Below are positions 25,620 through 58,639 of a stretch of 64,000 nt of DNA, one piece after another (within the stretch, counting starts at the first letter, position 1; each line of letters begins with the position of its first letter). The DNA comes from Alphaproteobacteria bacterium. Lineage in GTDB: Bacteria > Pseudomonadota > Alphaproteobacteria > Bin95. A model generated the notes under the pieces. It searched no databases, was not told where the DNA came from, and saw only the letters and a program-made list of their open reading frames with translations. Location: positions 5,312,001-5,376,000 of the forward strand of contig CBDBGH010000003.1 in NCBI GenBank assembly GCA_965205265.1, in the 5' to 3' direction. The translations under genes were made by a program, and so were the position numbers.

Positions 25620-25713
25620 GGGGGGCCGTCGGGTCGGAGAAGAGACGGCCCGCGGAGGCGATTCCCGCGGGCCGTGAGTGTTGTGGCCGCTGGGCCGATC
25701 TGGCGGCAGCGGT

Positions 25714-28061
<2,348 letters not shown>

Positions 28062-28130
28062 CTACTCGGAAAAACGTCACCGTTCGCCCAGCCGACCGAC
28101 CCCGCCAGAAGGTCCAGGAAAAATTTTTTG

Positions 28131-28189
28131 AGGCGGCGGCCCGGAACTCCGGTCGGGCTACGCCCTCCCTCCGTTCCGGGCCGCCGCCT
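28131..28189. other. long hairpin upstream of istA with conserved 25-nt apical motif
   Basis: 17-bp perfect stem around TCCGGTCGGGCTACGCCCTCCCTCC; same motif at 33777-33801. Confidence 0.75.
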
Positions 28190-28443
28190 TCCCCCGTCTC
28201 ATCCTGATTGTCGCCAGCGTCTCAAGCTGATTGTCGCGCCGCATCGCTTTCCGGTTGGCGTTGCGGGAGGTTGCCGGGGAACCCTTGTTTTGCAACGGTT
28301 TCCGGTCTTCCCGCCTGCCGCTTCCTTGTCCTCCTGCCCGCGAGCCCGGGGCCCTGTCCAGGACACGTTGTGGCATGTCCTGCGGGTCGGGTCCACCCGT
28401 CCCGGACGCTCGGCCCCTTCCGGCGCGCCGCGGCCGGGTTCGT

Positions 28444-29718
28444 TCAGAACTGGCGCACGAAGCTGAGTTCGGCGCGGTTGCGCCGGTAGTCGAGGGCCTG
28501 GGCGTTGGTCTTGCGCTGCTCGCGGATGAGGGAGAGGCGGGGGCTGAAGCCGAGCACGGTCACGGCGCGGTTGTGGACCGAGACCGAGAGGGTCCGCGTG
28601 TCGTCCCGGCGCGGCTTGCGGTCGATGGTGCGGTGGGCGGCGCCGCCACCCTGGTATTCGGTGCGCTGCAGGGCGGCGCGCAGGCCCAGGGTGAAGCCGG
28701 CCGGCAGCGCCAGCGTGGCGCCGAGGCTCGCCCGCGGACCGCTGTTGCGCCAGTGTTCGGCCTTGGCGCGGGCCCAGCTCCAGCCGGCATTGCCGCCGAG
28801 GCGCAGGATGGTCAGCGCGGCCCAGCTGGCGCCGAGCGAGACGTCGCCCACCGGGCCGTCGAGCCAGTCGCAGCCGCGGCAGTTGCGCCGGGCGGCGCCG
28901 GCGCGGGCGAAGAGCGCGAGGCGCGGCGTCAGGAGATGCTGGCCTTCGAGGCGCAGGCCGACGCTGTCGGTCTCGGGCCGGCCGGCGGTCCATTGCCGGT
29001 CCGCGGTCGCGAGCAGGCTCGCTTCGGTGCGGGCGTCGATCAGCCAGCGCGGGCCGATATGCGCGGCAAGGAAATGCCGGTCGAACTCCCCGCCCCTGTA
29101 TTCCCGGACGCTGGCATCCGCCCCGGCGCGCAGGCGCAGGCGGTCGTTCAGCGGATGCTGGTATTCGCCGCCGCCCCAGAAGGAGACGCCGAGGCCGGAT
29201 TCGGGCTTCGCGGGATCGTCCAGGGTGAAGGGCAGCCGTCCGTAGGGGGTGTCGAGGAAGACCGTGCGCTCGCCCGAGGCGGCGTTGAGGTTGCTGTCCG
29301 GGACGATGGCCGCCCCGAACCACGCCTCCCAGCGCCGCCGCGCGCGGATGATGTCGAGGAAGCGCCGGATGTTGGCGGCGACCGCCGGGGGCACGTCGCC
29401 CGCCAGCACCTGCTCGAAATGCCGCCGCGCCAGCGTGTCCTCCTCCTTCAGGAAGAAGGCGCGGGCGAGTTCGAGACGCACCCGCACCAGCTCCGGGCGG
29501 TCCACCAGGATGGCCCGGAAGGCGGCGACCGCCTCGTCGAGCCTGCCCTCGCGGGCTTCCCGGTCCGGCGCGGCATCGGCGGCGGCAAGCGCCTCCATCC
29601 CGGCCCGGAAGCGCATGTCGGCCGCATCCTGGCCCAGGGCGGGGCGCGCGACGGGCGCCGCAACAAGCAGGACCGACAGCCCCGCCAGCACGGGAACAAG
29701 GAACCGGAAAGGTCTCAT
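28444..29718 (-). CDS. Slam-family outer-membrane translocon (DUF560 / type XI secretion), copy 1
   Basis: Signal peptide, TPR-like RVRLELARAFF, PDSNLNAA, beta-strand-rich C-terminus ending in F; follows a lipoprotein gene. Confidence 0.88.
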   Translation of the reverse strand: MRPFRFLVPVLAGLSVLLVAAPVARPALGQDAADMRFRAGMEALAAADAAPDREAREGRLDEAVAAFRAILVDRPELVRVRLELARAFFLKEEDTLARRHFEQVLAGDVPPAVAANIRRFLDIIRARRRWEAWFGAAIVPDSNLNAASGERTVFLDTPYGRLPFTLDDPAKPESGLGVSFWGGGEYQHPLNDRLRLRAGADASVREYRGGEFDRHFLAAHIGPRWLIDARTEASLLATADRQWTAGRPETDSVGLRLEGQHLLTPRLALFARAGAARRNCRGCDWLDGPVGDVSLGASWAALTILRLGGNAGWSWARAKAEHWRNSGPRASLGATLALPAGFTLGLRAALQRTEYQGGGAAHRTIDRKPRRDDTRTLSVSVHNRAVTVLGFSPRLSLIREQRKTNAQALDYRRNRAELSFVRQF

Positions 29719-29921
29719 TCCGTGCCGCAGCGAACGCCGCTCCCTATGCCGACGGCATCGTCCTGTGCTCGCCGAGCGGATTGACGTACCGGTCATAGGC
29801 CAGCTGCAGTCGATGCACCGCAACCGATGTTAGCGACGGTTAGGAAGGGCGTTTATTTGCTGGCGCGGAACGGCCGGTTTGTGCGGCTTGCGAGCAGCGT
29901 CGCATGGGTTAGGTGTTGCGT

Positions 29922-30815
29922 TCATCTGATTGGGCGGTCATCGGTTTCGAGCGGCTCGCCGTCGCGGTCACGGATGAGCATGTCGTTCCAGTCCTGGTTT
30001 TCGAGGGCCGGTCGCATTCGGACGATTCTTGTGTCGTTGTCTTGCATGCGGCGGGCGGCGTGATCGCCGTATCGTGTAGCGTCCCAGGCACAGAAGATAC
30101 GGCGCGGGTTCCAGGCCTCGACCCATTTGGGGATTCTGGCCGTGATGGCGCCGGTGGAGACGACGGCGCATTTGCTGCGTTTTTCCGGGACGAGGTGGAG
30201 GGAGAGGATCGACAGGGCGTCGAGGGCGCTGCCGGTGAGGATGACGGTGCCGGGCCAGTCGGGCTCCCATGACATCCAGAAGCCGCCGTCTGCGGCCGGC
30301 TCCTGCGCTGCGGGGAGGGTCTCTATGCCGACCACCTTGCTGGCGGCGTTTCGGCGGAGGAACACGGGATTGCCGCGCCGGTCGGCACGGATCAGGCCGA
30401 GGCCTCGGCATAGCTCGACGAGCGCGTCGGCGAGGCCGCGCTGCTCGATGAGGTATTGCCGCAGCGCCGGCCAGCGAGGGTCCTGGCACGAGGGCTCCGC
30501 CTCACAGCGACTGTTCGGGAGCCGTGAGTGGCGCGGCAGTTGGGCGAGGAAGTCGAGGGCTTCGGTCGTTGGGCATCCGAGCGCATGAACCGCCAGCTGG
30601 ATGGCCCCGGCGCCTCCCTCTCCGCGCAGATGGTCGTAGAACATGAAGCGGTTGATGGAGAGGACCGAACCGGCTCGTCTCCAGCGCGCGGCATCGGCGG
30701 GATCGCGGCGATAGCCGAGGGCGTGGACCACGTCTTCGAGGGGGCAGCTTCGCAGCCCCTCGGCCCGCAGGCGGCGATCCCATGGATGCAGATGCTGCAC
30801 GGCTGGCTCAGGCAT
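29922..30815 (-). CDS. DUF3991/toprim-like protein with degenerate acidic motifs
   Basis: [39 protein letters not shown]; start overlaps the istB stop. Confidence 0.72.
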
Positions 30816-31593
30816 CCCCCGTGTCTTGCGCCGTGCTCTTGCCCGCTCCTTTTGCCGATCGCCGCCGGCGGCGATCGGCGCTGCGCTGCTTCTGGCGTTC
30901 CTCGGCCTCCTTGCGGCGGTATGAGTCGCCGTCGATGGCGAGGATCTCGGCATTGTGGACGAGCCGGTCGACAAGGGCCACGAGGCAGGCGGCGTTGGGG
31001 AAGGCCTCGCTCCACTCGGCGAAGGGGCGGTTTGTGGTGATGATGGTGGAGCGCTGCTGGCTGCGGCTTGAGACGATATTGAACAGCAGGTCGGCATGAC
31101 GGTTGGAGTAGGAGAGATATCCGACTTCGTCGATGACCAGGAGGTGCTGGCGGGCGTAGAAGCGCAGCCTGCGCTGGAGCATTGTGTCGGAGTCGATGGC
31201 GGCGAGCTCGCCGAGCAGGCTGGCGGCGGTTGCGAAGCGCACGGTGTGGCCTTCGAGGACGGCGCGGTGTGCGATATTGGCGGCGATTGTGGACTTGCCG
31301 ACGCCGTTGGGGCCGATGAGGACGACATTGGCGCCCTCGCGGAGGAAGTTGAGGGTCATGAGGTCCTCGACGGCCATGCGGTCGCATCGCCTTGGCCAGT
31401 CCCAGTCGAAGTCGGCGAGCGGCTTGAACTGTCCGAGGCGGGCGGCGGTGAGGCGTCGCCTGAGGCTTCGGCTTCGCCTCTCTTCCTCTTCCCATGCGAT
31501 CAGGGGCGGGAGCCAGTCGCGCTCCGCAACCTCGCTCCAGTGGGCGAGGAGGCCGTGCAGTCCGAGCGCCGTGGCGCGGTCCTTGAGGGTCAT
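30808..31593 (-). CDS. istB: IS21 helper ATPase IstB
   Basis: [23 protein letters not shown]. Confidence 0.95.
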
Positions 31594-33095
31594 TCTTCGC
31601 TGTCCTCCTCGTGGTGGCTTGCGAGCCCGTCGTATCCGCCGAGGTCGTGATCGCGGACCGCGATATCGCGCAGTCTTGGATCGCCGGGCAGGTCGATGGG
31701 GATGGGTGGTGGCTCGTTGCGCTGTTCGCGCCGCCGGTTCAGGCTGAAGCGCACCGCATTGGGATGGGGGACGCCGCGCTCAAGGGCTTCATCGATGGCG
31801 GCTTCGAGTTCGACGGCTCCGTAGTCGTCGAGCAGGCGCAGCAGGGAGGCGACGGTTGTGCCGATATTGCCGCCGCGCCTGGCGGTCTCGGCAAGCAGGC
31901 GCTCGCTGTCGGGGGCGGCCTGGAGAAGGCGGCTCTGCCCGCGCAGGCGGTGGGCGTGACGTTTGAGCCTGACCAGCTCCTCGATGTGCTCGGGGGTCTC
32001 GATGCGGGCCGCCTTGTCGAAGCTGCGCGGATGACGGGCGACGGTGTCGGCGCCGTCGAGGATGCGTACCTCCTCCAGTGTCGCGACCACGGTGAGGGTG
32101 CGCCGCGTATGGGTATGCGGGACGCTATAGTCATTGAGGTCGAACCTGGCGTAGGGGGTCTTGCCGATCCTGACCTCGACCCTCTCGTCGACGGGGGGCC
32201 GGTCGTCGGGCAGCGCCATCAGGGAGCCGCGCTCGCGCTCGAAGGCCTCGCGCACGGTGAGGGAGCGGTCGTCCGGCCAGCGACGGTCGGCGGCGACGCC
32301 GTCGCACCAGGCGCGGGCCCGGGCGTTCAGGTCGTCGAGGTCGCGCCAGGCGCGGGCGGCGAAGAAGTTGTCGCGCACATAGCGTATGGCGCGCTCCACG
32401 CGCCCCTTCTCGTTGCCGCGCGCGACCGCGACCGGCTTGGGCAGGAAGCGGTAGCGGGCGGCGAAGTCGAGGAGCCGGGGGTTGAACCGGATGGCGTCGC
32501 CCTGGCGCTCCAGCACGACGCTCTTCAGGTTGTCGTACCATAGCTCGCGGGGCACGCCCTGCCAGGCCTCGAAGGCCTCGACATGGCCGCGCAGGAAGTT
32601 GTCCATCGCGGCATTGAGGTAGAAGTGCAGGAAGATGCGGCGCGAGTAGCTCAGCACCATCACGAAGCCCATCAGCGGGCGCTCCGCGCGCCCGATCCTC
32701 ACCTTGCCGAAGTGGGCCCAGTCCACCTGGGCCAGCTCGCCGGGCAGGGTCTTGAGGCGCAGATAGGCCTCGGCCACAGGCCGCGGGCGCTCCGGCGCGA
32801 TCATGCGCCGGAAGTGGCTCTGGCTGCCCCGGTAGCCGCGCTCGACCGCCATCTGGTAGAGCCGGCTGGCTGGCAGCCTGGGCCAGACCGCCAGGGTCTG
32901 GCGGATGAAGGGCCGGAACGGATCGATCATCGAAGCCCTGCGCCGCCTCTCACGCGCGGGCGCCCCGGCGGCCGCTACCGCGCGCTCGACCGTGCCGTGG
33001 TGGACGCCGAGCTGGCGCGCGATCGTGCCGATCCTCCACTTCTCGGCAAAATACAGCCGCTGGATCTCGGCACGGGTCTGCTTGTCGATCGCCAT
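31590..33095 (-). CDS. istA: IS21 transposase IstA
   Basis: AQVDWAHFG, WYDNLKS, EKGRVER; GGGAG RBS before ATG at 33095. Confidence 0.95.
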   Translation of the reverse strand: MAIDKQTRAEIQRLYFAEKWRIGTIARQLGVHHGTVERAVAAAGAPARERRRRASMIDPFRPFIRQTLAVWPRLPASRLYQMAVERGYRGSQSHFRRMIAPERPRPVAEAYLRLKTLPGELAQVDWAHFGKVRIGRAERPLMGFVMVLSYSRRIFLHFYLNAAMDNFLRGHVEAFEAWQGVPRELWYDNLKSVVLERQGDAIRFNPRLLDFAARYRFLPKPVAVARGNEKGRVERAIRYVRDNFFAARAWRDLDDLNARARAWCDGVAADRRWPDDRSLTVREAFERERGSLMALPDDRPPVDERVEVRIGKTPYARFDLNDYSVPHTHTRRTLTVVATLEEVRILDGADTVARHPRSFDKAARIETPEHIEELVRLKRHAHRLRGQSRLLQAAPDSERLLAETARRGGNIGTTVASLLRLLDDYGAVELEAAIDEALERGVPHPNAVRFSLNRRREQRNEPPPIPIDLPGDPRLRDIAVRDHDLGGYDGLASHHEEDSEE

Positions 33096-33096
33096 C

Positions 33097-33531
33097 TCAC
33101 TCCCTTCGCGCCTGGCGCAGGCCCGGATAGACCGCCAGGCCGCAGAACCGACCGCAGCGCTCGCAGCGGAACACCCGGGCGGGACGGTCGGGCCCGAAGG
33201 GCCGGGTTCCGGACCGCCCCGCCGGTATGCGCGCCACATCAGGACGCCGGCGCGCGACGGTCAAAGGGTGATGCGTCACTTTCTGCGCGATGGCCCGAAC
33301 TGCCGGCTGCCGCACACGGCGCCGTTCGCGGTAGCGCCGCTGGCGCTCGGCATGCTTGTGACGGCCCCGGCGGCTGTTCTGGTAGCGCTGCCCCGCAAGG
33401 CGCACCGACCGACGCCGCGCCCGCCCGCTGCAACGCGGCGAACAGTAGATATGGCCAGAGTCGCAGCGCCGGCAGAGAACCACCTGGCGGCGGCACAGGG
33501 CGCAGGTGAACAGGCGGGCGGCGTTCCTCAT
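33097..33531 (-). CDS. Cys-rich, basic accessory protein upstream of istA (putative Zn finger)
   Basis: CALC..CRRC..YCSPRC..CERCGRFC, Arg-rich helix; stop is 1 bp before the istA start. Confidence 0.7.
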   Translation of the reverse strand: MRNAARLFTCALCRRQVVLCRRCDSGHIYCSPRCSGRARRRSVRLAGQRYQNSRRGRHKHAERQRRYRERRRVRQPAVRAIAQKVTHHPLTVARRRPDVARIPAGRSGTRPFGPDRPARVFRCERCGRFCGLAVYPGLRQARRE

Positions 33532-33760
33532 CGCGACCGATGAGAACGGGGTGGACCCACGCCCGGACGCGCACGATACTGCGCTTCCGGGCCGCGCCTT
33601 GCATGGCTCGGGGGGTGCGGCGCCGGTCGTTGCCACCAAGCCAACGGGGCCGGCGCCGCATCGTTCTCAGAAGCCCCAGTCTACCCCCTGCCGCAGCCCG
33701 GGAACGGCCAACCCGGTCGCCAGGACGTCGCCGCCCTCCGGGAGGCGAAAATCTCAACGC

Positions 33761-33817
33761 GACGGGGGCCGAGGACTCCGGTCGGGCTACGCCCTCCTTC
33801 CGTCCTCGGCCCCCGTC
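33761..33817. other. long hairpin with the same conserved apical motif as 28131-28189
   Basis: 16-bp perfect stem of different sequence around TCCGGTCGGGCTACGCCCTCCTTCC. Confidence 0.75.
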
Positions 33818-34084
33818 ATAAACCCGGCCGCGCCTGTCTCACGCTGTTTGTCGTGCGCACCACAAAAGCGCGCTACGCCAGCAAATATGCGCCCTTTATG
33901 ATAATCACCGACACCCGGAGGGAAGCCGCCGGAAGAACGGCGCGCGGTCCGCGTCTGTCGCATCCTTGCGGCGCCTGTGTCCTGCCATCGAAAAAAGGAA
34001 GGGCGGCGCAGGAAACGCGCCACCCTTGTCACGACCGGGAACCGGGCCGGCCTCCCGCATGAACGGGAGCCCGGCCCCGTGCGG

Positions 34085-36733
34085 CTACTCCGTCGTCGGC
34101 GTCTGAAGCTCCGTGCCGAAGGCGCCGACCATCCGGTGGGTGCCGCCGTGTTCGGCCTGGAACTTGCCCATGATCGCGGTCGGATGGTTGCTGCCGTCGC
34201 CGCCATTCTCAACCGTGCCGGGCTTGTCGTCATACAGGTTGGCCACCCAGCTCCCGGCCGGCGCCGCCTTGTTGCCGTTGATCGACCACACCGTCTTTTC
34301 CGTGTTGACGATGTGGCCCTTCTGGGCATCGGTGGCCAAGCTGGGGTCGGTGGTCCAGGCCGCCTTGTTCAACGTCACGCTCCAGTCGTTCTTCATCCCG
34401 TTTTTCAGCCTGAAGTCGTGGATCGTGCCGGTCAGGCCCGTGTCGGCGTTCAGGTTGGCGGTCCCGAACTGGGCCTTCAGCGTGGCCGTCGCCGTGAACT
34501 CGCCACCGCCGCCCTTCTCGTTGAGCGGGTCGTTGATGGCGTACCAGCCGATCGCGGGGCCCTCATAGGTCGCCGCCCTGCCTCGGTTGACGTTCAGGCT
34601 CTTGCCGTCCGTGGCGAGATCGACGCCCCCGCCGACGGACTGGTAGAAGGCGCTGACCGCCGCCGGCATGCCGTCGGCGTCGTTCCGCACCCACCAGCCG
34701 AAGTACATGTAGCTGAGGTCCCTTTCCAGCACCTTCGCGCCCGCGTCGTGGACGAAGTACCAGTCGGCGGACATGAAGTAGCCGCCGAACCCGCCTCCTC
34801 CGACCCCGGTCCCGACCGTGCAGGTGCCGCTTGCGGGGCAGAAGTAGTTGCCCGGCGCGCCGTAGTAGGTGCCGGGGACCTTGATCTCCGCGCCCCCGTC
34901 GGCCGGCTTCGGAGCGGTCACGGACCCTATCCCGACGGTCCACTTGTCGAACGTGGCGGATGCGATCGCCCGGTCGACCCCGGTGCCCAGGGTCAGTCTG
35001 CGCGCGTGTTTTGGGCCGCTGTTGCCGGATACGAACGGCTCGTAGGTCCCCTTGTTGATCCAGTCGGTGTCGTCCTTGAAGAACTTCGCGGCATCCATCG
35101 GGACGACACCCCATCTCTCCAGCGGGCCGCCCTGCCGGTCGTTGTACACCCGGACCTTGTCGGTGACCTTCATGCTGCCGGAGCCGGTGGTCCTTTCGTA
35201 GTGCGTGACGTTCCACCGGCCCACCTTGTCCATGGTCGTGTCGTGCCCGGGGCGCCCCTCCGCGCCGTGCCTGAAGTACACGGCGGTGTGGGTGTTCGCA
35301 GTCGCGATGCTCCCCGCGCCGGCCGCGGGGTCGATGCGGAAGTCCCCCCGCTCGCCCCTCTGACCGGTCGCCTCCGCCGGGGCGTCGTGCTGGCTATCGG
35401 TGATACTGGTGATGTAGTACGGGACGGTCGCGAGGTTGTTCAGCGCGTTCACCGGGGCCGTTGTGTCATCGGACGGACCCATCGCCGCGTACAGCGCCCG
35501 GCCCATCCTGTGCCCGTCCATGCGCGCCGTCTTGGCGTCGCCGAAGGCGTCCTCCTGCAGGGCGAGCCTCGTGCGCAGCAACTCCTTGTTGGCCTCGGGG
35601 ATGTTCGCGTCCGCGATCGCCGTCTTGGCCGCCGCGATGGCGGCTTCGACGTCGGTCACGGTGCTTTCCTCGGACAGGGACGTGATCCTGGCGATCGCGT
35701 CCATGACCGCCTTAATCTCGCCGTCCGTGATCGTCGTGACGACGCCGGCGATGCGGGTCTCCTCGGCCTTGGCCGCCATGCGGGAGTCCTTGGCCCGGTC
35801 GAGCGCGCCCTGATGCATGGCAATCTTCGAGCGAAGCTTCGCCTTTTCAGACTCGGGGATGTTTGCGCCCTCGATCTCCGCCTTGGCCGCGTCGATGGCG
35901 GCCTGGGCGTCCGTCACGGTGTCGTCGCCGGACGTGTTCGTGACCATCTTGACCGCCTCCATGGCCGCCGCGACCTGGGTGCCCTCGATGTTCTTGACAA
36001 CATGATCGTGGTAATGGCCCTGCGCCGTCTTGATCTGCCCGTCGTCAGCGTCCGCACGGTCCGCCTGAGCCTGATACCGGTCCTTTTCGTCGTCGGTCAG
36101 ATCCTCGGCGCCCGCGATCGCCGCTTTCAGCTCTCTGAGAGCGGCCATGGCGGCGTCGAGCTGCGCCTTCGTGGGCGTCACGCCCGCAAACGCCGCAAGA
36201 GCCATGTCGAGCTTTCCGGAAGCCCCCGAAAGCGCGTTCATCTGCTCTTTCCGGTCCACGGCTGTCTGGGCACTGGCCAGTTGCGTCCGATACGTCGCCT
36301 TGTTGGCATCGCTCACGTCGCCCGCATCGTCCAGCGCCTCCTTGAGAGCCGCGATGGCCGCCTTGGCCGCGGCGAGCTTGTCCGCGTCCGACAGGTCGGA
36401 CGTGTCGACCTCGGCGAGCGCGTCCATCAGCGCCTTCTTCTGATCCATCTCGCGAGCCATCGTCGCCAGCACCGTCTTGCGCGCCGCAGCCGCCGCCTGA
36501 AGCTTCGCGAGCTCCTCGCCGGAAACGCCGGCCGTTGCATCGGCAACGGCCTTGTCGACCGCAGCGTCCGTCGTGGCCGCCTTGATGGCCGCGTCCGCCT
36601 TCTGGTAGGGCGTCTGCGTCTGCGCCGGCATCTGCGTCGTCGTCGACGGCGAGCTTCCGCCCCCGCCGCAGCCGGCAAGCCCCAGAGCCGTGGCGGCCAT
36701 GACCGCGATCGCCCAATGCTTCACAATTCTCAT
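34085..36733 (-). CDS. 882-aa surface lipoprotein (Ala-rich helical stalk + TbpB-like barrel), copy 1
   Basis: Lipobox LAGC-GGGGS; YFGWW, ATYEGPAIG, FTATATLKAQF, MVGAFG. Confidence 0.9.
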   Translation of the reverse strand: MRIVKHWAIAVMAATALGLAGCGGGGSSPSTTTQMPAQTQTPYQKADAAIKAATTDAAVDKAVADATAGVSGEELAKLQAAAAARKTVLATMAREMDQKKALMDALAEVDTSDLSDADKLAAAKAAIAALKEALDDAGDVSDANKATYRTQLASAQTAVDRKEQMNALSGASGKLDMALAAFAGVTPTKAQLDAAMAALRELKAAIAGAEDLTDDEKDRYQAQADRADADDGQIKTAQGHYHDHVVKNIEGTQVAAAMEAVKMVTNTSGDDTVTDAQAAIDAAKAEIEGANIPESEKAKLRSKIAMHQGALDRAKDSRMAAKAEETRIAGVVTTITDGEIKAVMDAIARITSLSEESTVTDVEAAIAAAKTAIADANIPEANKELLRTRLALQEDAFGDAKTARMDGHRMGRALYAAMGPSDDTTAPVNALNNLATVPYYITSITDSQHDAPAEATGQRGERGDFRIDPAAGAGSIATANTHTAVYFRHGAEGRPGHDTTMDKVGRWNVTHYERTTGSGSMKVTDKVRVYNDRQGGPLERWGVVPMDAAKFFKDDTDWINKGTYEPFVSGNSGPKHARRLTLGTGVDRAIASATFDKWTVGIGSVTAPKPADGGAEIKVPGTYYGAPGNYFCPASGTCTVGTGVGGGGFGGYFMSADWYFVHDAGAKVLERDLSYMYFGWWVRNDADGMPAAVSAFYQSVGGGVDLATDGKSLNVNRGRAATYEGPAIGWYAINDPLNEKGGGGEFTATATLKAQFGTANLNADTGLTGTIHDFRLKNGMKNDWSVTLNKAAWTTDPSLATDAQKGHIVNTEKTVWSINGNKAAPAGSWVANLYDDKPGTVENGGDGSNHPTAIMGKFQAEHGGTHRMVGAFGTELQTPTTE

Positions 36734-36791
36734 GAACCCTTCTCCTTTCAGCAGGAACGCCTCGCCGGTCCCCGATGCAAACTCCGGGCAA

Positions 36792-36819
36792 AGTGTAGGT
36801 GGAACGCAGGGCGTGTCAA
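36792..36819 (-). promoter_or_regulatory. sigma70-type promoter of lipoprotein copy 1
   Basis: TTGACA-N16-TACACT (mirror of 42011-42038). Confidence 0.65.
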
Positions 36820-36897
36820 CAAACTAAAACACTTCATGCGCCGTTCCCTCATGCGAGCCCCAGCGCAGGCGGAGCATAGGCGGACAGGACGGGAGAA

Positions 36898-39203: not shown

Positions 39204-39414
39204 CTTCCGACCCCTTCCCTTGTCTGCCGGTCGCAGGAGCCCCCGTTGGGGAACACCCAGGACACGCCGGGGAACGGCGTCGGGTTCGAAGATCGGAAGG
39301 GCCGGAAGTGCCGCACTCAAACGCCGCGCGGGCTGCAAGCCATTGTCAGAACTGGCCTTGCGGCGCTTCGCGGATGCGGGGGCGGAGTGATGATTTCTAC
39401 GCCCTTCGGCGCGT

Positions 39415-39433
39415 GGTTCTCACACCCGACGCA
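39415..39433 (-). repeat. 19-bp att/end motif (copy 2)
   Basis: GGTTCTCACACCCGACGCA is the reverse complement of 8871-8889; homology to copy 1 stops at 39433. Confidence 0.85.
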
Positions 39434-39620
39434 CCCGTGGTGCAGAGAGCGAGACCCGGCCGACCTTCAACGGTCGAGAGTTTTCCGTTGCACGACAAGG
39501 GGTTGGGGCCGGGTCCGGCCTCCGGCCGCGAGCCTGTGCGCAGGCCGCGTTGTCCGTTCGGAAACGCCGTTTCGTTCCCCCGGAACGGGCGGCATCCCAG
39601 GGAACGGATCCGGAGGCCCC

Positions 39621-40751
39621 ATGCGCATCCATGCCACCATCGACGAACGGACGGCCAACAGGCCGTTCGAGCAGCGCCGGAAATCCCGCAACGGCATCAC
39701 CGTCATCGACCGGGATCTGCCCGCCTTCGGCCTCAAGGTCGCGAAAGGCGGGGCAAGGTTCTTCCATGTCCTCGTCGGGGGAAGGACCGTCCGTCTCGGC
39801 TCCCCCGGCGACATGACCGCCGCCGAGGCGAGGGAGAAGGCGCTTGCCGCCATCGCGAAGGCCAGGGACGACAAGGAGGCCGGTCCCCTGTTCACCGACT
39901 TCGCAGCCGAGTTCATGCGCCGCCAGGGGCGGCGCTGGAAGCCGTCCACGAGGACAGGCAACGCCCACCTGATCGACCGCTACCTCGTCCCCTTCTTCGG
40001 TGCGATGCGCGTCCCGCAGATTGGCCGCGCCGACGTGCGGCGCTGGTTCGACGCCATGAGCGGCACGCCCGGCAACGCCAACCGGACCCTGCCGGTGCTC
40101 TCGGTGATGATGCGGCAGGCCGAGTTGTGGGACCTGCGCCCGCAGGGATCCAACCCCTGCCGCAACATGCGCCGCTACCGGACGAAGCCGAGAGAGCGGT
40201 TCCTGTCCGTGGACGAACTCAAGCGCCTCGGCTTCGTGCTCGACCATGCCGGGGACAGGCAGGCCGCCGCCGCAATCCAGCTCCTGCTGTTCACCGGCGC
40301 GCGCTCGTCCGAGATCGCCGGCCTGCAATGGGACTGGATCCGCGATACCCGCGCGGTCCTGCCCGACAGCAAGACCGGGCCGAAGGCAGTCCAGCTTCCG
40401 CCGCCTGCAAGGGCGGTCCTCAACGCCCTGCCGCGCAGGGGGCGCTACGTCTTCCCCAACGGGAGGGGCGACGGGCCGATGACCGACCTCGGCCCGCGCT
40501 GGCGGAAGCTGCGCGGCCTCGCCGGGCTCGACGATGTGCGCCTCCACGACTGCCGCCATACCTTCGCCTCCCACGCCGTGATGAGCGGCCTCGACCTCTA
40601 CACCGTCGGCCGTCTGCTCGGCCATGCCGACACCGCGTCCACCGAACGCTACGCCCATCTCGCCGACGGACATGTCCGCGCCGCCGCCGGGCGCATCTCC
40701 GGCATCGTCCACGATGCCATGACCGGCAGCGGGAAGGAGGACGGACGATGA
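39621..40751 (+). CDS. tyrosine integrase B1
   Basis: GGAGG RBS; TGARSSE, DSKTG, HDCRHT, LGH, STERYAH. Confidence 0.94.
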   Translation: MRIHATIDERTANRPFEQRRKSRNGITVIDRDLPAFGLKVAKGGARFFHVLVGGRTVRLGSPGDMTAAEAREKALAAIAKARDDKEAGPLFTDFAAEFMRRQGRRWKPSTRTGNAHLIDRYLVPFFGAMRVPQIGRADVRRWFDAMSGTPGNANRTLPVLSVMMRQAELWDLRPQGSNPCRNMRRYRTKPRERFLSVDELKRLGFVLDHAGDRQAAAAIQLLLFTGARSSEIAGLQWDWIRDTRAVLPDSKTGPKAVQLPPPARAVLNALPRRGRYVFPNGRGDGPMTDLGPRWRKLRGLAGLDDVRLHDCRHTFASHAVMSGLDLYTVGRLLGHADTASTERYAHLADGHVRAAAGRISGIVHDAMTGSGKEDGR

Positions 40752-41932
40752 GCGGGGGCAGGCGCCGCATCCGGCTGACCGTGAAGGCCATCGCCGCCGC
40801 CAGGCCGACGGAACGGGAATACACCCTCTGGGACAAGCTGCTGGCGCATTTCGGGGTCCGGGTGCAGCCTTCGGGAGTGCGCTCCTACATCGTCCAGACC
40901 CGCGTCAACGGGCGCATGCGCAAGATCACCCTCGGCCGCTTCCCCGAACTCTCCCTCGACGCCGCCCGGCGGGACGGCGCGGCCGCGCTCGCCCGCCTGT
41001 GGGGCGGCGAGGACATGGCGCCGCCGCGCAGGACCAGGGCGCCGCTGTTCCGCGACTTCGCCGCCCGCTACCGCGAACGGCGGAAACACCGCTGGAAGCC
41101 ATCCTCTCTGGAGACCTTCGACATCTACATGCGGAACCGCCTGATGCCGCATTTCGACAGGCTCCGGCTCGACGCCATCGACCATGCCTGTGTCTCGGCA
41201 TGGTTCGACGCCGCCAGCGTCGACCGGCCCGGCGCGGCCAACCGCGCCTTCGAGATCCTCCGCGCCATGCTCGCGACGGCCCGCCAGTGGGGCGACCTCG
41301 GCGAGCATGTCCCCGACGCCTGCGCCAACATCGCCAGGAACCCGCGGCGGCCGGTCGCCCGCCATCTCGACCGTGCGGAGCTCAAACGCCTCGGCGCGGT
41401 GCTGGACCGGCGCCGGGAGGACCACCCCTGGCCGGTTGCGGCCATCCGCCTGCTGACGCTCACCGGAGCGCGACTCTCCGAAATCCTCGACCTCACATGG
41501 GACGAGATCGGGGAACTGGACGAGGACGGCGCCAGCGCCCGGCTGGCCGACACCAAGACGGGCCCGAGGCACGTTCTGCTGGGCGAAGCGGCGCGGGCGT
41601 TGCTGGCCGGCCTCGCCGAATCGGCGTCCGGGGAATGTGTGTTTCCGGGCAGGAGCGGAGACGGGCCGTTGGGCAGCAACGAACTCCACTATTTCTGGAC
41701 CACGACGCGCGATGCGGCCGGGATCGTGGCGGATGCGCGGCTTCATGACCTGCGACATGCGCATGCCTCGCACGCCGTCATGAATGGCGAAAGCCTGCAT
41801 GTCGCAGGACGCCTGCTCGGACACCGCCGGGCCAGCACGACGAACCGCTATGTCCATCTCGACGACGCGACCCTCGGCCAAGCCGCCGAGCGGGTGGCGG
41901 TGGCGGTCGAGCGGAAGCTCCGGAGTTGTTGA
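40748..41932 (+). CDS. tyrosine integrase B2 (shares its C-terminus from DTKTG onward with A2)
   Basis: ATGA overlap with B1; TGARLSE, DTKTG, HDLRHA, TTNRYVH. Confidence 0.94.
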   Translation: MSGGRRRIRLTVKAIAAARPTEREYTLWDKLLAHFGVRVQPSGVRSYIVQTRVNGRMRKITLGRFPELSLDAARRDGAAALARLWGGEDMAPPRRTRAPLFRDFAARYRERRKHRWKPSSLETFDIYMRNRLMPHFDRLRLDAIDHACVSAWFDAASVDRPGAANRAFEILRAMLATARQWGDLGEHVPDACANIARNPRRPVARHLDRAELKRLGAVLDRRREDHPWPVAAIRLLTLTGARLSEILDLTWDEIGELDEDGASARLADTKTGPRHVLLGEAARALLAGLAESASGECVFPGRSGDGPLGSNELHYFWTTTRDAAGIVADARLHDLRHAHASHAVMNGESLHVAGRLLGHRRASTTNRYVHLDDATLGQAAERVAVAVERKLRSC

Positions 41933-42010
41933 TTCTCCCGTCCTGTCCGCCTATGCTCCGCCTGCGCTGGGGCTCGCATGAGGGAACGGCGCATGAAGTG
42001 TTTTAGTTTG

Positions 42011-42038
42011 TTGACACGCCCTGCGTTCCACCTACACT
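42011..42038 (+). promoter_or_regulatory. sigma70-type promoter of lipoprotein copy 2
   Basis: TTGACA-N16-TACACT, AT-rich upstream; AGGAG RBS before ATG at 42097. Confidence 0.65.
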
Positions 42039-42096
42039 TTGCCCGGAGTTTGCATCGGGGACCGGCGAGGCGTTCCTGCTGAAAGGAGAAGGGTTC

Positions 42097-44745
42097 ATGA
42101 GAATTGTGAAGCATTGGGCGATCGCGGTCATGGCCGCCACGGCTCTGGGGCTTGCCGGCTGCGGCGGGGGCGGAAGCTCGCCGTCGACGACGACGCAGAT
42201 GCCGGCGCAGACGCAGACGCCCTACCAGAAGGCGGACGCGGCCATCAAGGCGGCCACGACGGACGCTGCGGTCGACAAGGCCGTTGCCGATGCAACGGCC
42301 GGCGTTTCCGGCGAGGAGCTCGCGAAGCTTCAGGCGGCGGCTGCGGCGCGCAAGACGGTGCTGGCGACGATGGCTCGCGAGATGGATCAGAAGAAGGCGC
42401 TGATGGACGCGCTCGCCGAGGTCGACACGTCCGACCTGTCGGACGCGGACAAGCTCGCCGCGGCCAAGGCGGCCATCGCGGCTCTCAAGGAGGCGCTGGA
42501 CGATGCGGGCGACGTGAGCGATGCCAACAAGGCGACGTATCGGACGCAACTGGCCAGTGCCCAGACAGCCGTGGACCGGAAAGAGCAGATGAACGCGCTT
42601 TCGGGGGCTTCCGGAAAGCTCGACATGGCTCTTGCGGCGTTTGCGGGCGTGACGCCCACGAAGGCGCAGCTCGACGCCGCCATGGCCGCTCTCAGAGAGC
42701 TGAAAGCGGCGATCGCGGGCGCCGAGGATCTGACCGACGACGAAAAGGACCGGTATCAGGCTCAGGCGGACCGTGCGGACGCTGACGACGGGCAGATCAA
42801 GACGGCGCAGGGCCATTACCACGATCATGTTGTCAAGAACATCGAGGGCACCCAGGTCGCGGCGGCCATGGAGGCGGTCAAGATGGTCACGAACACGTCC
42901 GGCGACGACACCGTGACGGACGCCCAGGCCGCCATCGACGCGGCCAAGGCGGAGATCGAGGGCGCAAACATCCCCGAGTCTGAAAAGGCGAAGCTTCGCT
43001 CGAAGATTGCCATGCATCAGGGCGCGCTCGACCGGGCCAAGGACTCCCGCATGGCGGCCAAGGCCGAGGAGACCCGCATCGCCGGCGTCGTCACGACGAT
43101 CACGGACGGCGAGATTAAGGCGGTCATGGACGCGATCGCCAGGATCACGTCCCTGTCCGAGGAAAGCACCGTGACCGACGTCGAAGCCGCCATCGCGGCG
43201 GCCAAGACGGCGATCGCGGACGCGAACATCCCCGAGGCCAACAAGGAGTTGCTGCGCACGAGGCTCGCCCTGCAGGAGGACGCCTTCGGCGACGCCAAGA
43301 CGGCGCGCATGGACGGGCACAGGATGGGCCGGGCGCTGTACGCGGCGATGGGTCCGTCCGATGACACAACGGCCCCGGTGAACGCGCTGAACAACCTCGC
43401 GACCGTCCCGTACTACATCACCAGTATCACCGATAGCCAGCACGACGCCCCGGCGGAGGCGACCGGTCAGAGGGGCGAGCGGGGGGACTTCCGCATCGAC
43501 CCCGCGGCCGGCGCGGGGAGCATCGCGACTGCGAACACCCACACCGCCGTGTACTTCAGGCACGGCGCGGAGGGGCGCCCCGGGCACGACACGACCATGG
43601 ACAAGGTGGGCCGGTGGAACGTCACGCACTACGAAAGGACCACCGGCTCCGGCAGCATGAAGGTCACCGACAAGGTCCGGGTGTACAACGACCGGCAGGG
43701 CGGCCCGCTGGAGAGATGGGGTGTCGTCCCGATGGATGCCGCGAAGTTCTTCAAGGACGACACCGACTGGATCAACAAGGGGACCTACGAGCCGTTCGTA
43801 TCCGGCAACAGCGGCCCAAAACACGCGCGCAGACTGACCCTGGGCACCGGGGTCGACCGGGCGATCGCATCCGCCACGTTCGACAAGTGGACCGTCGGGA
43901 TAGGGTCCGTGACCGCTCCGAAGCCGGCCGACGGGGGCGCGGAGATCAAGGTCCCCGGCACCTACTACGGCGCGCCGGGCAACTACTTCTGCCCCGCAAG
44001 CGGCACCTGCACGGTCGGGACCGGGGTCGGAGGAGGCGGGTTCGGCGGCTACTTCATGTCCGCCGACTGGTACTTCGTCCACGACGCGGGCGCGAAGGTG
44101 CTGGAAAGGGACCTCAGCTACATGTACTTCGGCTGGTGGGTGCGGAACGACGCCGACGGCATGCCGGCGGCGGTCAGCGCCTTCTACCAGTCCGTCGGCG
44201 GGGGCGTCGATCTCGCCACGGACGGCAAGAGCCTGAACGTCAACCGAGGCAGGGCGGCGACCTATGAGGGCCCCGCGATCGGCTGGTACGCCATCAACGA
44301 CCCGCTCAACGAGAAGGGCGGCGGTGGCGAGTTCACGGCGACGGCCACGCTGAAGGCCCAGTTCGGGACCGCCAACCTGAACGCCGACACGGGCCTGACC
44401 GGCACGATCCACGACTTCAGGCTGAAAAACGGGATGAAGAACGACTGGAGCGTGACGTTGAACAAGGCGGCCTGGACCACCGACCCCAGCTTGGCCACCG
44501 ATGCCCAGAAGGGCCACATCGTCAACACGGAAAAGACGGTGTGGTCGATCAACGGCAACAAGGCGGCGCCGGCCGGGAGCTGGGTGGCCAACCTGTATGA
44601 CGACAAGCCCGGCACGGTTGAGAATGGCGGCGACGGCAGCAACCATCCGACCGCGATCATGGGCAAGTTCCAGGCCGAACACGGCGGCACCCACCGGATG
44701 GTCGGCGCCTTCGGCACGGAGCTTCAGACGCCGACGACGGAGTAG
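42097..44745 (+). CDS. 882-aa surface lipoprotein, copy 2
   Basis: Translation appears identical to 34085..36733. Confidence 0.9.
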   Translation: MRIVKHWAIAVMAATALGLAGCGGGGSSPSTTTQMPAQTQTPYQKADAAIKAATTDAAVDKAVADATAGVSGEELAKLQAAAAARKTVLATMAREMDQKKALMDALAEVDTSDLSDADKLAAAKAAIAALKEALDDAGDVSDANKATYRTQLASAQTAVDRKEQMNALSGASGKLDMALAAFAGVTPTKAQLDAAMAALRELKAAIAGAEDLTDDEKDRYQAQADRADADDGQIKTAQGHYHDHVVKNIEGTQVAAAMEAVKMVTNTSGDDTVTDAQAAIDAAKAEIEGANIPESEKAKLRSKIAMHQGALDRAKDSRMAAKAEETRIAGVVTTITDGEIKAVMDAIARITSLSEESTVTDVEAAIAAAKTAIADANIPEANKELLRTRLALQEDAFGDAKTARMDGHRMGRALYAAMGPSDDTTAPVNALNNLATVPYYITSITDSQHDAPAEATGQRGERGDFRIDPAAGAGSIATANTHTAVYFRHGAEGRPGHDTTMDKVGRWNVTHYERTTGSGSMKVTDKVRVYNDRQGGPLERWGVVPMDAAKFFKDDTDWINKGTYEPFVSGNSGPKHARRLTLGTGVDRAIASATFDKWTVGIGSVTAPKPADGGAEIKVPGTYYGAPGNYFCPASGTCTVGTGVGGGGFGGYFMSADWYFVHDAGAKVLERDLSYMYFGWWVRNDADGMPAAVSAFYQSVGGGVDLATDGKSLNVNRGRAATYEGPAIGWYAINDPLNEKGGGGEFTATATLKAQFGTANLNADTGLTGTIHDFRLKNGMKNDWSVTLNKAAWTTDPSLATDAQKGHIVNTEKTVWSINGNKAAPAGSWVANLYDDKPGTVENGGDGSNHPTAIMGKFQAEHGGTHRMVGAFGTELQTPTTE

Positions 44746-44876
44746 CCGCACGGGGCCGGGCTCCCGTTCATGCGGGAGGCCGGCCCGGTTCCCGGTCGTG
44801 ACAAGGGTGGCGCGTTTCCTGCGCCGCCCTTCTTTTTCGATCGGGAGCCCGGACGGCAAGCGATGCGACAGACGCG

Positions 44877-46151
44877 ATGAGACCTTTCCGGTTCCTTGTT
44901 CCCGTGCTGGCGGGGCTGTCGGTCCTGCTTGTTGCGGCGCCCGTCGCGCGCCCCGCCCTGGGCCAGGATGCGACCGACATGCGCTTCCGGGCCGGGATGG
45001 AGGCGCTTGCCGCCGCCGATGCCGCACCGGACCGGGAAGCCCGCGAGGGCAGGCTCGACGAGGCGGTCGCCGCCTTCCGGGCCATCCTGGTGGACCGCCC
45101 GGAGCTGGTGCGGGTGCGTCTCGAACTCGCCCGCGCCTTCTTCCTGAAGGAGGAGGACACGCTGGCGCGGCGGCATTTCGAGCAGGTGCTGGCGGGCGAC
45201 GTGCCCCCGGCGGTCGCCGCCAACATCCGGCGCTTCCTCGACATCATCCGCGCGCGGCGGCGCTGGGAGGCGTGGTTCGGGGCGGCCATCGTCCCGGACA
45301 GCAACCTCAACGCCGCCTCGGGCGAGCGCACGGTCTTCCTCGACACCCCGTTCGGCCGGCTGCCTTTCACCCTGGACGATCCCGCGAAGCCCGAATCCGG
45401 CCTCGGCGTCTCCTTCTGGGGCGGCGGCGAATACCAGCATCCGCTGAACGACCGCCTGCGCCTGCGCGCCGGGGCGGACGCCAGCGTCCGGGAATACAGG
45501 GGCGGGGAGTTCGACCGGCATTTCCTTGCCGCCCATGTCGGCCCGCGCTGGCTGATCGACGCCCGCACCGAAGCGAGCCTGCTGGCGACCGCGGACCGGC
45601 AATGGACCGCCGGCCGGCCCGAGACCGACAGCGTCGGCCTGCGCCTCGAAGGCGAGCATCTGCTGACGCCGCGCCTCGCGCTCTTCGCCCGCGCCGGCGC
45701 CGCCCGGCGCAACTGCCGCGGCTGCGACTGGCTCGACGGCCCGGTGGGCGACGTCTCGCTCGGCGCCAACTGGGCCGCGCTGACCATCCTGCGCCTCGGC
45801 GGCAATGCCGGCTGGAGCTGGGCCCGCGCCAGGGCCGAACACTGGCGCAACAGCGGCCCGCGGGCGAGCCTCGGCGCCACGCTGGCGCTGCCGGCCGGCT
45901 TCACGCTCGGCCTGCGCGCCGCCCTGCAGCGCACCGACTATGAGGGCGGCGGCGCCGCCCACCGCACCATCGACCGCAAGCCGCGCCGGGACGACACGCG
46001 GACCCTCTCGGTCTCGGTCCACAACCGCGCCGTGACCGTGCTCGGCTTCAGCCCCCGCCTCTCCCTCATCCGCGAGGAGCGCAAGACCAACGCCCAGGCC
46101 CTCGACTACCGGCGCAACCGCGCCGAACTCAGCTTCGTGCGCCAGTTCTGA
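44877..46151 (+). CDS. Slam-family outer-membrane translocon, copy 2
   Basis: 424 aa; nine substitutions counted relative to copy 1. Confidence 0.88.
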   Translation: MRPFRFLVPVLAGLSVLLVAAPVARPALGQDATDMRFRAGMEALAAADAAPDREAREGRLDEAVAAFRAILVDRPELVRVRLELARAFFLKEEDTLARRHFEQVLAGDVPPAVAANIRRFLDIIRARRRWEAWFGAAIVPDSNLNAASGERTVFLDTPFGRLPFTLDDPAKPESGLGVSFWGGGEYQHPLNDRLRLRAGADASVREYRGGEFDRHFLAAHVGPRWLIDARTEASLLATADRQWTAGRPETDSVGLRLEGEHLLTPRLALFARAGAARRNCRGCDWLDGPVGDVSLGANWAALTILRLGGNAGWSWARARAEHWRNSGPRASLGATLALPAGFTLGLRAALQRTDYEGGGAAHRTIDRKPRRDDTRTLSVSVHNRAVTVLGFSPRLSLIREERKTNAQALDYRRNRAELSFVRQF

Positions 46152-46365
46152 ACGAACCCGGCCGCGGCGCGCCGAAAGGGGCCGGCCGTCCGGAAAGGGT
46201 GGACCCGACCCGCAGGACATGCCACAACGTGTCCTGGACAGGGCCCCGGGCTCGCGGGCAGGAGGACAAGGAAGCGGCAGGCGGGAAGACCGGAAACCGT
46301 TGCAAAACAAGGGTTCCCCGGCAACCTCCCGCAACGCCAACCGGAAAGCGAAAAGGCATCACAGA

Positions 46366-46384
46366 TGCGTCGGGTGTGAGAACC
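46366..46384 (+). repeat. 19-bp att/end motif (copy 3)
   Basis: Exact match; separates the Slam module from the conjugative backbone. Confidence 0.85.
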
Positions 46385-48690: not shown

Positions 48691-48756
48691 CGACTTTCTC
48701 CTCTCTTCGGGGCGGCTTGCCCGGCCTCCGCATTCCTCTCCCTCCCCCGGACCGGG

Positions 48757-58636: not shown

Positions 58637-58639
58637 GGG

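Follow-up and report, generated by a model that had tools for sequence, protein, structure and literature searches.

The window, a stretch of 64,000 nucleotides (nt; G000:C3:5312001-5376000) on a chromosome of 5.46 Mb with 68% GC, contains two gene groups in head-to-head orientation, each composed of two overlapping tyrosine integrase genes, a gene for a lipoprotein of 882 amino acids (aa) and a gene for a Slam exporter of the type XI secretion system (T11SS). The left group appears to derive from a site-specific integrative element of about 7 kb, here designated L-type, and the head-to-head arrangement is probably secondary, arising from an inversion that involved a second, R-type element; the probability of this reading is put at roughly 0.7. 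In order, the L-type element comprises an attachment (att) core, an arm of 211 nt, the integrase genes IntL2>IntL1, a promoter, the lipoprotein gene, the Slam gene, an arm of 214 nt and a second att core. An initial annotation of this DNA had proposed a compact mobile surface-display cassette. Direct repeats, several different flanks and empty sites uphold this proposal as far as a site-specific insertion of about 7 kb is concerned, for which confidence is high; however, the right module is not its equivalent.

Boundaries and attachment site of the L-type element

Several copies of the L-type element are present in the genome. Apart from the window copy (W), the left part of which is split by a 4.2-kb insertion sequence (IS) and truncated by an IS21, these are a second head-to-head arrangement (copy X, 5152745-5166343; 99.9% identical over 12.4 kb, with a different flank), a single intact copy (copy Y, G000:C3:3507657-3514645; matching the window copy at 99.76% over 5488 nt) and a copy lacking the integrases (copy Z, 3486445-3491289). 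Integrase pairs devoid of cargo are found at T47 (4734317-4737038) and in the window at 8871-11045, and diverged or broken lipoprotein and Slam genes occur elsewhere in the genome.

Copy Y is bounded by direct repeats, a core of 20 nt on the left and of 19 nt on the right, with the core reading GGTTC(G)TCACACCCGACGCA. From flank to flank it consists of flank-GGTTCGTCACACCCGACGCA-tail, Slam, lipoprotein, IntL1, IntL2 and arm-GGTTCTCACACCCGACGCA-flank, which amounts to 6.97 kb counting one core. Alignment of the DNA beyond each Slam and each IntL2 gene places the end of homology among the copies at the 19-mer. At the integrase end, four different flanks were found in five copies, all of which break at the core, and at the Slam end three different flanks in six copies, the sixth being cut by IS21 before the core. 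In a fuzzy scan of the genome, ten of 22 matches to the core were exact or had a 1-nt insertion, and all ten of these lie at element boundaries. Within the window, the 19-mer GGTTCTCACACCCGACGCA has three matches, at 39415-39433 (+), 46366-46384 (-) and 8871-8889 (-), compared with none in 100 shuffles, in agreement with the 19-bp junction motif of the initial annotation.

Target sites conform to the pattern flank-GGTYC.CACACC..ACGCA-CC(G/C)(A/G)TGGTGC-flank. On the element side, the core is followed by 10 nt (TCTGTGATGC) that are similar to the target extension, and each of the two sequences forms a 5-bp palindrome around 3 nt. Since the core on the integrase side is constant and that on the Slam side occurs in 19- and 20-nt forms, the left part of which varies with the target, strand exchange most likely takes place within the right-hand portion of the 19-mer (about CCGACGCA). 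The two arms have two 10-mers in common and there is one inverted partial core, to be read as a lead only.

The same boundaries recur at other loci, namely the core at copy Y and at locus L027 in the related metagenome-assembled genome (MAG) G041, and core-like repeats in the metagenome contig L084 (JGI). In L084, an IntL2-like gene (85-90%) and an IntL1-like gene (74%) lie between direct core-like repeats 5.3 kb apart, and neither a lipoprotein nor a Slam gene is found between these repeats. Head-to-head L-type and R-like pairs with a core between them are also seen at about 438 kb in G000:C3 and at L027, a layout that fits two element types using the same core in opposite gene orientation.

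Empty sites

Flanks paralogous to the YspA-type flank of the window occur 11 times in the genome. The site was read in ten, the eleventh being cut by IS21. Three of the ten carry an element (W, Y and Z). At four others (E1, E2, P3189 and P2557), core-like sequence runs straight into (C/T)CGATG(G/A)TGCAG and unrelated DNA, two show a core variant followed by other DNA, and in the last one the stretch that was read ended before the site. The YspA flanks are 83-99% identical to that of the window, the element copies 99.6-100%.

In G041, contig C1 includes one site in which flank, core and flank follow each other without an element. On the left, flank and core share 97.5% identity with the sequence adjoining the Slam end of copy X; on the right, the flank shares 82% with the sequence adjoining the integrase end of copy Y. 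Empty-site alleles, by which the initial annotation proposed to check mobility, therefore exist at four paralogous sites in G000 and at one in G041:C1, the latter with 82% identity on one side. In this MAG, at least five copies derived from the L-type element are present (integrases about 97%, Slam 97.6% and lipoprotein 92% identical at the aa level), and a pattern scan for core plus tail gave two matches. One of the copies, L027, is bounded by direct repeats of the core and occupies an A-type flank, a kind of flank that is empty in G000.

Beyond the Slam-side core of the window lies an ICE- or plasmid-like accessory block (46742-63787; ICE, integrative and conjugative element), which encodes YspA-SLOG, DUF4326, DUF7146-Toprim, SSB, a Strawberry-notch-type helicase of 1609 aa and DUF6573. 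Its YspA end has about ten paralogous copies in the genome (83-99%), each with a hairpin followed by a core-like site.

Gene organization of the window

The features of the two modules, with their window coordinates and strands, are as follows.

8871-11045 (+): third, partial L-type integrase end, with core 8871-8889 (-), IntL2 copy 9109-10260 and IntL1 residues 1-263 (10257-11045)
28244-28443 (-): left tail of the L-type element, downstream of SlamL, truncated at 28243/28244
28444-29718 (-): SlamL, Slam (T11SS, DUF560/SlipAM), 424 aa, from the open reading frame (ORF) listing and start mapping
29719-33949 (-): IS21-family insertion of 4231 nt between LipoL and the SlamL ATG, foreign to the element
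34085-36733 (-): LipoL, 882-aa lipoprotein with LAGC lipobox, helical repeat N-half and a C-terminal domain predicted to be Slam-substrate-like in fold
36898-38055 (-): IntL1, downstream integrase of the L-type pair, 385 aa
37271-37284 (-): hot-spot CCCGACACCAAGAC in IntL1, encoding PDTKT, inner boundary of the 100% inverted repeat
38052-39203 (-): IntL2, upstream integrase of the L-type pair, 383 aa, ATGA overlap with IntL1
39204-39414 (-): integrase-side arm of the L-type attachment region, with two 10-mers common with the tail and an inverted partial core
39415-39433 (+): att core (19-mer), integrase end of the L-type element, with the conserved extension of the target side (CCCGTGGTGCAG) after it
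39434-39620 (+): upstream region of the R-type integrase pair, equal to the target-side flank of the L-type insertion
39621-40751 (+): IntR2, upstream integrase of the R-type pair, 376 aa, 99% identical to its counterpart in G041:C1 across the portion found in that contig
40748-41932 (+): IntR1, chimeric downstream integrase, 394 aa; N-terminal ~265 aa R-type, C-terminal 129 aa as in IntL1
41546-41559 (+): hot-spot GCCGACACCAAGAC, switch from R-type to L-type sequence
42011-42038 (+): promoter-like site TTGACA-16-TACACT, 59 nt upstream of the LipoR ATG
42097-44745 (+): LipoR, 882-aa lipoprotein, 100% identical to LipoL
44803-44831 (+): terminator-like hairpin with T run between LipoR and SlamR, a consensus match
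44877-46151 (+): SlamR, 424 aa, SlipAM Pfam match, 97.9% aa identity to SlamL
46152-46365 (+): complete tail, Slam-side arm, ending in the palindrome GCATC-TGT-GATGC
46366-46384 (-): att core, Slam end, with an ICE-like flank beyond (YspA-SLOG gene 46742-47683)

The gene content read by the initial annotation is borne out. Both integrase pairs show a gene overlap of 4 nt, matching the ATGA coupling that had been described. Phage_integrase and SAM-like/central domains were detected by Pfam in all four integrases and Arm-DNA-bind_3 exceeded its cut-off in three (20.2 in IntR2, with a cut-off of 27), which is in line with their designation as arm-type integrases. Catalytic completeness had also been claimed; the positions R238, K261, H324, R327, H350 and Y359 (IntL1 numbering), which we take to be the catalytic residues, are invariant in the six aligned integrases of the window. 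SlamR matches SlipAM over residues 130-424 with 68 bits against a cut-off of 22, and its N-terminal region scores 28.2 bits with TPR_Slam, below the cut-off of 35.2. No Pfam family matches the 882-aa lipoprotein.

Two inverted repeats connect the modules: one of 3296 nt and 100% identity (33993-37288 / 41542-44837), which begins within the downstream integrase genes, and one of 1480 nt and 98% identity (28244-29723 / 44872-46351), which takes in the tail of about 200 bp. Lipoprotein, Slam and tail are thus present in both modules, as had been annotated. The promoter placed before the lipoprotein gene corresponds to the promoter-like site 59 nt upstream of its ATG, one such site being found where 0.2 are expected; terminator-like hairpins, by contrast, are consensus matches only (three found against 4.5 expected). 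Next to the Slam-side core, the palindrome GCATC-TGT-GATGC at 46356-46368 is followed by a T run and is also terminator-like for transcription entering the element from outside. The window contains neither tRNA genes nor Rfam matches, ruling out a tRNA or a known RNA as target, and the four genes of the element include none for conjugation, both of which accord with the initial annotation.

Chimeric nature of the right module

The genes and the mirror layout of the two modules are as first described. The modules are unequal, however, and the right one is chimeric. IntR1 is 60% identical to IntL1 overall and identical to it from DTKTGPR on, where the perfect repeat starts. In Int1 of T47 (4735695-4737038), the IntL1 N-terminus extends up to the same point and is followed by a different C-terminus. 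One gene in G041:C1 combines the R-type IntR1 N-terminus (99.3% nt identity) with the T47-type C-terminus (99.5%). By their sequences, window IntR1 and T47 Int1 are reciprocal recombinants, for which this gene of G041:C1 provides the native single-gene form. The right module is, on the same comparison, an R-type integrase pair joined to the distal part of an L-type copy, and thus not one of two equivalent modules: it recombines the integrase pair of a larger element with the distal half of the L-type element.

The larger element is represented in G041:C1. This R-type element is at least about 22 kb long and runs from the integrase pair to flank and core at the opposite end; its cargo of about 20 kb is syntenic with the DNA downstream of T47, and it ends in the flank of copy X and the core. 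The R-type cargo includes a Drt1a-type reverse-transcriptase defence protein of 1251 aa (PADLOC, 1248 bits) and a type I restriction-modification (R-M) specificity subunit. In G000, R-type cargo at L072 4304-11522 (G000:C3:4737303-4744521) has a GC content of about 56%.

The history of the mirrored pair can be proposed with moderate confidence. An R-type element would have carried L-type copies at both of its att ends, one on the integrase side and one on the far side. IntR1 and the distal IntL1, being inverted relative to each other, would have recombined at the 14-bp hot-spot CCGACACCAAGAC, with inversion of the DNA between them. The predicted product, IntR2-IntR1(N)|IntL1(C)-Lipo-Slam-tail-core(inverted)-flank(inverted), is exactly what the sequences of the right halves of W and X present.

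Four joints are marked by the hot-spot 14-mer CCCGACACCAAGAC, i.e. the L/R switch, the T47 switch, position 11045 of the window and the start of Int1 in copy Z. At 11045 the IntL1 fragment of the third L-type integrase end stops and is followed by the AT-rich end of an element with another, third type of pair (M3), so that this L-type end is cut at hot-spot 11028-11041 by another integrase-pair element. In copy Z the start of the Int1 fragment is preceded by another AT-rich end. Because the 14-mer is common to both junctions as a direct repeat (window 11028 and G000:C3:3491273-3491307), as expected for an insertion, an M3-type element appears to have inserted into an IntL1 gene, the halves of which now lie 1.8 Mb apart. 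The 14-mer has CCCGAC in common with the L-type core, and the joints may reflect either site-specific recombination or short-homology exchange.

The M3 element (11028-13581) has AT-rich ends and integrase genes at 11228-12412 and 12409-13581. Downstream of its pair (13734-21466) are encoded a predicted AAA-ATPase/PD-(D/E)XK protein (13734-15419, -) and a protein of 1497 aa with FN3/PKD/He_PIG repeats (15967-20460), which may represent another surface-protein cargo. Contrary to what had been suggested at first, the Slam cassette does not define the family: sibling pairs carry DRT1a and an R-M specificity subunit or a large FN3/PKD protein, and L084, with the same core, is without lipoprotein and Slam genes.

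Distribution and co-divergence of integrase pairs

Tandem integrase pairs are the rule in this genome. Out of 42 integrase-like genes, 36 form 18 tandem same-strand pairs, and all 18 sets hold two recombinase genes, with no three-gene set among them. In a tree of 29 rows, upstream and downstream members are separated by three label changes compared with 7.7 in shuffles (0-1 of 500 as low), and the upstream and downstream sub-trees mirror each other; IntL2 is placed weakly on a long branch. Thirteen of the 42 intervals were left out of the tree, 11 as identical copies (4734547, 5156859, 5158013, 5321109, 5322257, 5348901, 5350055, 5351621, 5352748, 5434613 and 5435801) and two as short or partial (1641989 and 4324606).

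Among 41 genomes searched, G000 itself and 40 relatives, matches at E<=1e-40 occurred in 24, including 15 of 16 other genomes of the same genus, none of them above 47% identity outside G000. Adjacent integrase pairs are present in at least nine genomes among the matches listed. In metagenomes, 1167 proteins were related to IntL2 at E<=1e-30; the 120 listed are 68-97% identical and bear several phylum labels, which may reflect either wide transfer or a mis-binned mobile element. Among the matches listed, IntL2-like proteins of 68-89% identity come from Rhodospirillaceae, Nitrospinae, Holophagales and Thiotrichales MAGs.

As judged from the tree and the genome search, the tandem pairs are old, co-diverging and inherited as a pair, and because of this a joint function of the two integrases is suggested. 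They would act as a co-evolved hetero-oligomer without a separate excisionase, although confidence in any division of work between them is low to moderate. The initial annotation had suggested one integrase per end, with an XerC/D-like asymmetry; the co-divergence of upstream and downstream lineages speaks for cooperation as such. Conservative tyrosine recombination would then take place between the element's own att site, ..CGCCCTTCGGCGCGT-GGTTC(G)TCACACCCGACGCA-TCTGTGATGCC.., and the target sites. The latter are found at the termini of larger elements, either ICE-like or with an integrase pair of their own, and elements accrete side by side in this way.

Alternative explanations

Several observations weigh against the interpretation given above. 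No circular junction was found among the 15 joints listed out of 26 in Logan unitigs of public runs; in runs X3 and X7, a contig departs from the element at 39429 and enters a fifth, otherwise unseen flank, at most a hint. IS elements have extensively rearranged the genome, and one of about eight copies is intact, so that part of the copy number may be due to duplication or homologous recombination. DNA beyond the Slam-side core is common to W, Z and partly Y. The two L-type-derived halves of the window are identical, and assembly collapse is possible. With 82% identity on one side, the empty site of G041 may face a paralogue there and not an orthologue. The hot-spot lies in the most conserved stretch of the gene, where ordinary short-homology recombination could also place joints. 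Inspection of the ORFs in arms and intergenic regions revealed no excisionase-like ORF, no profile search being part of it. Finally, the structural matches of the lipoprotein described below have low TM-scores (0.15-0.26 on the query), as the model has several domains. Two public runs labelled sponge metagenome contain 0.09-0.10 of the words, from which no habitat is claimed.

The cassette might instead be the terminal module of larger ICE-like islands, spread by segmental duplication, IS rearrangement and gene conversion, with the 19-mer as the att site of the island. The right module of the window, copy Z and partly copy Y indeed continue into the same YspA/DUF4326/Toprim/SSB region beyond the core, IS21 recombination has demonstrably swapped flanks, a single copy is intact, and the sibling R-type element of G041, with its pair at one end and flank and core at the other, extends over at least about 22 kb. 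However, in copy Y a mere 6.97 kb is bordered by the core at either end, flanks of this kind lack the element in four paralogues and in G041, the flanks are 83-99% identical compared with 99.6-100% for the cassette, and four unrelated flanks adjoin the integrase end; an island origin is thus considered unlikely. Still less probable is an assembly artefact of collapsed or misjoined repeats, which the 3.3 kb of 100% identity and the dozens of identical IS copies in the genome might invite but which we regard as barely credible: the same 12.4-kb layout exists at a second locus with a different flank (99.9%), unitigs from other runs, which may be the source sample, bridge the R-type/L-type joint (X5 record 13, 41240-41576; X6 record 20, 41254-41576), and head-to-head L-type and R-like pairs are also present at about 438 kb and in G041. 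The mirrored layout could also serve as an invertible switch, in which flipping of the 4.25-kb centre or of the right module controls expression of integrase or lipoprotein. Inverted cores (39415-39433, + and 46366-46384, -) enclose the right module and inverted hot-spots inside the 3.3-kb perfect repeats the centre, and reciprocal products of one such inversion exist. The two lipoprotein genes do not differ, however, and the repeat provides each of them with a promoter-like site of its own, so that flipping would leave the coding and promoter configuration unchanged; no alternative orientation occurs among the unitig joints listed, and copy Y is explained as a simple insertion, which renders a functional switch very improbable.

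The remaining alternative concerns the integrases. A single integrase of the pair could perform both integration and excision, with the other acting as directionality or regulatory factor or at another site such as the hot-spot. It would be consistent with this that no Xis-like ORF was seen, that the hot-spot is a second recombination site, used by a sibling element with a 14-bp direct repeat, and that IntL2 has a long branch and an unsettled position in the tree. Against it stand the conservation of every catalytic-position column in all six aligned integrases, the co-divergence of upstream and downstream lineages and the overlapping genes, which suggest equimolar co-expression. Such a division of roles is on balance doubtful, less so than the island, switch and artefact explanations, and cooperation of the two integrases as a hetero-oligomer is preferred.

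Comparison with known systems

Side-by-side accretion at a common att site is known for integrative elements, a trait that the L-type element shares. The L-type element resembles integrative (mobilizable) elements and islands with heterobivalent lambda/P4-type integrases in its arm and catalytic domains, direct core repeats, empty sites and lack of conjugation genes. It differs from them in that two co-diverging integrases in overlapping genes take the place of Int plus Xis, that the target is not a tRNA but the att end of sibling or ICE-like elements, and in its size of 7 kb and its T11SS cargo.

XerC and XerD are two paralogous tyrosine recombinases, each of which binds one half of an asymmetric core. 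They are host-encoded and without arm-binding domains, whereas the integrases found here are element-encoded and have Arm-DNA-bind_3-type N-termini.

As of 2023, five groups of tyrosine-recombinase transposons are distinguished in a passage of PMC10214605: ICE and integrative and mobilizable elements (IME), strand-biased circularizing elements (SE), GInt, recombinase-in-trio elements (RIT) and Tn554. RIT elements have adjacent, co-inherited tyrosine recombinase genes and are described as common in alpha- and beta-proteobacteria in part of PMC3414803; the account in PMC10214605 adds three recombinases and terminal inverted repeats. The L-type element likewise has adjacent co-inherited recombinases, yet two of them, and direct repeats. 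With two genes per set in 18 of 18 cases and direct instead of inverted repeats at the ends, identity with RIT was rejected. For Tn554, SE and GInt, the section concerned of PMC10214605 gives more than one tyrosine recombinase, target specificity and no mobilisation genes. These elements combine an ordinary and a large recombinase with accessory proteins (TnpC, Srap/Tfp, GinC/D), imperfect terminal inverted repeats and 6-bp footprints, and SE leave no empty site, in contrast to the L-type element. They too were rejected, as the integrases here are 376-394 aa long with the same domain set, no third conserved gene is present and the repeats are direct and 19/20 bp in length. ICEPmu1 and ICEMh1 are thought, according to a portion of PMC6861422, to use an XerCD-like recombinase pair at a core between two recognition sites. 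They are large, conjugative, inserted at tRNA-Leu and flanked by 11-13-bp repeats, unlike the L-type element with its 7 kb, absence of transfer genes and non-tRNA site; an ICE of this type does not fit an element of four genes in a window with no tRNAs. The name bipartite module (BIM) was not adopted for the pair either, BIM being known only from beta-proteobacteria and compared by description only.

The Slam gene and its neighbour resemble known Slam/T11SS pairs in that a DUF560/SlipAM gene adjoins a gene for a lipobox protein, whose C-terminal domain is predicted to be of the same fold class. Here, however, the lipoprotein is without a Pfam family, has a helical N-half, and the gene pair is located on an integrase-pair element. 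Literature searches of a limited library, with supplementary tables outside their scope, yielded no description of a tandem-integrase-pair element or of Slam on such a mobile element; one paper retrieved, PMC4502571, proved irrelevant. The L-type element is a new variant among integrative elements rather than a categorically new mechanism, and it is not RIT-, Tn554- or SE-like.

Tentatively, tandem co-evolving arm-type integrase pairs may constitute an unrecognised class of small integrative elements next to the five groups named above, obligate hetero-oligomers without excisionase that swap cargo and accrete at att ends, with a second site (the D-T-K-T-G motif) in sibling integrase genes. If this holds true, the integrase genes themselves would serve as recombination sites for competition and module shuffling. 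One sibling that appears to have inserted at the hot-spot with a 14-bp duplication and two others that exchanged integrase C-termini and cargo point in this direction, and the cargo would range from T11SS surface display and DRT1/R-M defence to giant adhesin-like proteins. The hot-spot in the integrase gene suggests a mechanism for the exchange of cargo between siblings, and given the abundance of IntL2 relatives elements of this type may be frequent but lack annotation. Why two integrases are needed can be tested directly, since the att site is defined by sequence and both empty sites and an intact 7-kb copy are available. Moreover, a Slam exporter could travel together with its substrate as a self-inserting cassette, which would offer a route for spreading and diversifying surface lipoproteins.

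Lipoprotein and Slam cargo

A word-filtered search assembled a lipoprotein family of 32 proteins with lengths of 528-1001 aa, none of which has a Pfam domain. Residues 440-882 of the lipoprotein were modeled with AF2 from 28 sequences (pLDDT 73.6). The model of this C-terminal domain matches fHbp, HpuA, hemophilin, TbpB and PmSLP (Foldseek probability 0.9-1.0, E from 1.5e-4), all of which we take to be Slam substrates; the title of the PmSLP entry names it as such. Slam is predicted to transfer the lipoprotein to the cell surface. The N-terminal half consists of about 430 aa of helical repeats, and diverged direct repeats of 46 nt are present at 42235-43321 (mirror 35509-35905). Since the family ranges from 528 to 1001 aa around a conserved C-terminal domain, the sequences suggest a variable, repeat-built outer part. 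Between G000 and G041 the lipoprotein is 92% identical, its neighbours about 97%.

The C-terminal domain is encoded at 41 loci in MAG records. Full tandem integrase pairs are found at six of these (L026, L027, L029, L033, L042 and L058) and integrase fragments or single genes at four, while 31 show none within the fetched flanks, many being on short contigs. In L033, L042 and L058, which are from other MAGs, the pair is divergent from the lipoprotein gene (plus Slam in L058); these loci are short contigs without the L-type core and have AT-rich ends like the M3 pair type.

Damage to the left module and insertion sequences

The left module of the window is damaged at two positions. Directly 5' of the SlamL ATG, an insertion of 4231 nt (29719-33949), missing from the initial annotation, contains an IS21-family element with IstA (31590-33239), IstB (30808-31593) and a passenger ORF with a DUF3991 match. 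The IS21-family element proper (29824-33918, 4.09 kb) has about 17 near-identical copies in the genome. A second IS21 cuts the left tail at 28243/28244, with loss of about 33 nt and the outer core, which is why the left module lacks an outer 19-mer. This cut, the start of the perfect repeat inside the downstream integrase genes and the third, partial integrase pair at 8871-11045 are likewise absent from the initial annotation. The lost core, together with the initial 21 nt of the tail, is located at G000:C3:4707880-4707925, before an IS21 copy at 4707926. This copy (G000:C3:4707926-4710712) and that at 25453-28243 of the window have reciprocally swapped target duplications (TCGCTTT / CACGGT), implying that either the two copies recombined or the assembly was misjoined.

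The repeat load of the genome comprises IS21 with 22 full copies of more than 99% identity and a 1.92-kb DDE IS with about 65 copies. In the window, a DDE_Tnp_1 IS of 1.92 kb (21731-23649) is flanked by a perfect direct repeat of 202 nt (21532-21733 and 23648-23849), which is far beyond the usual length of a target duplication.

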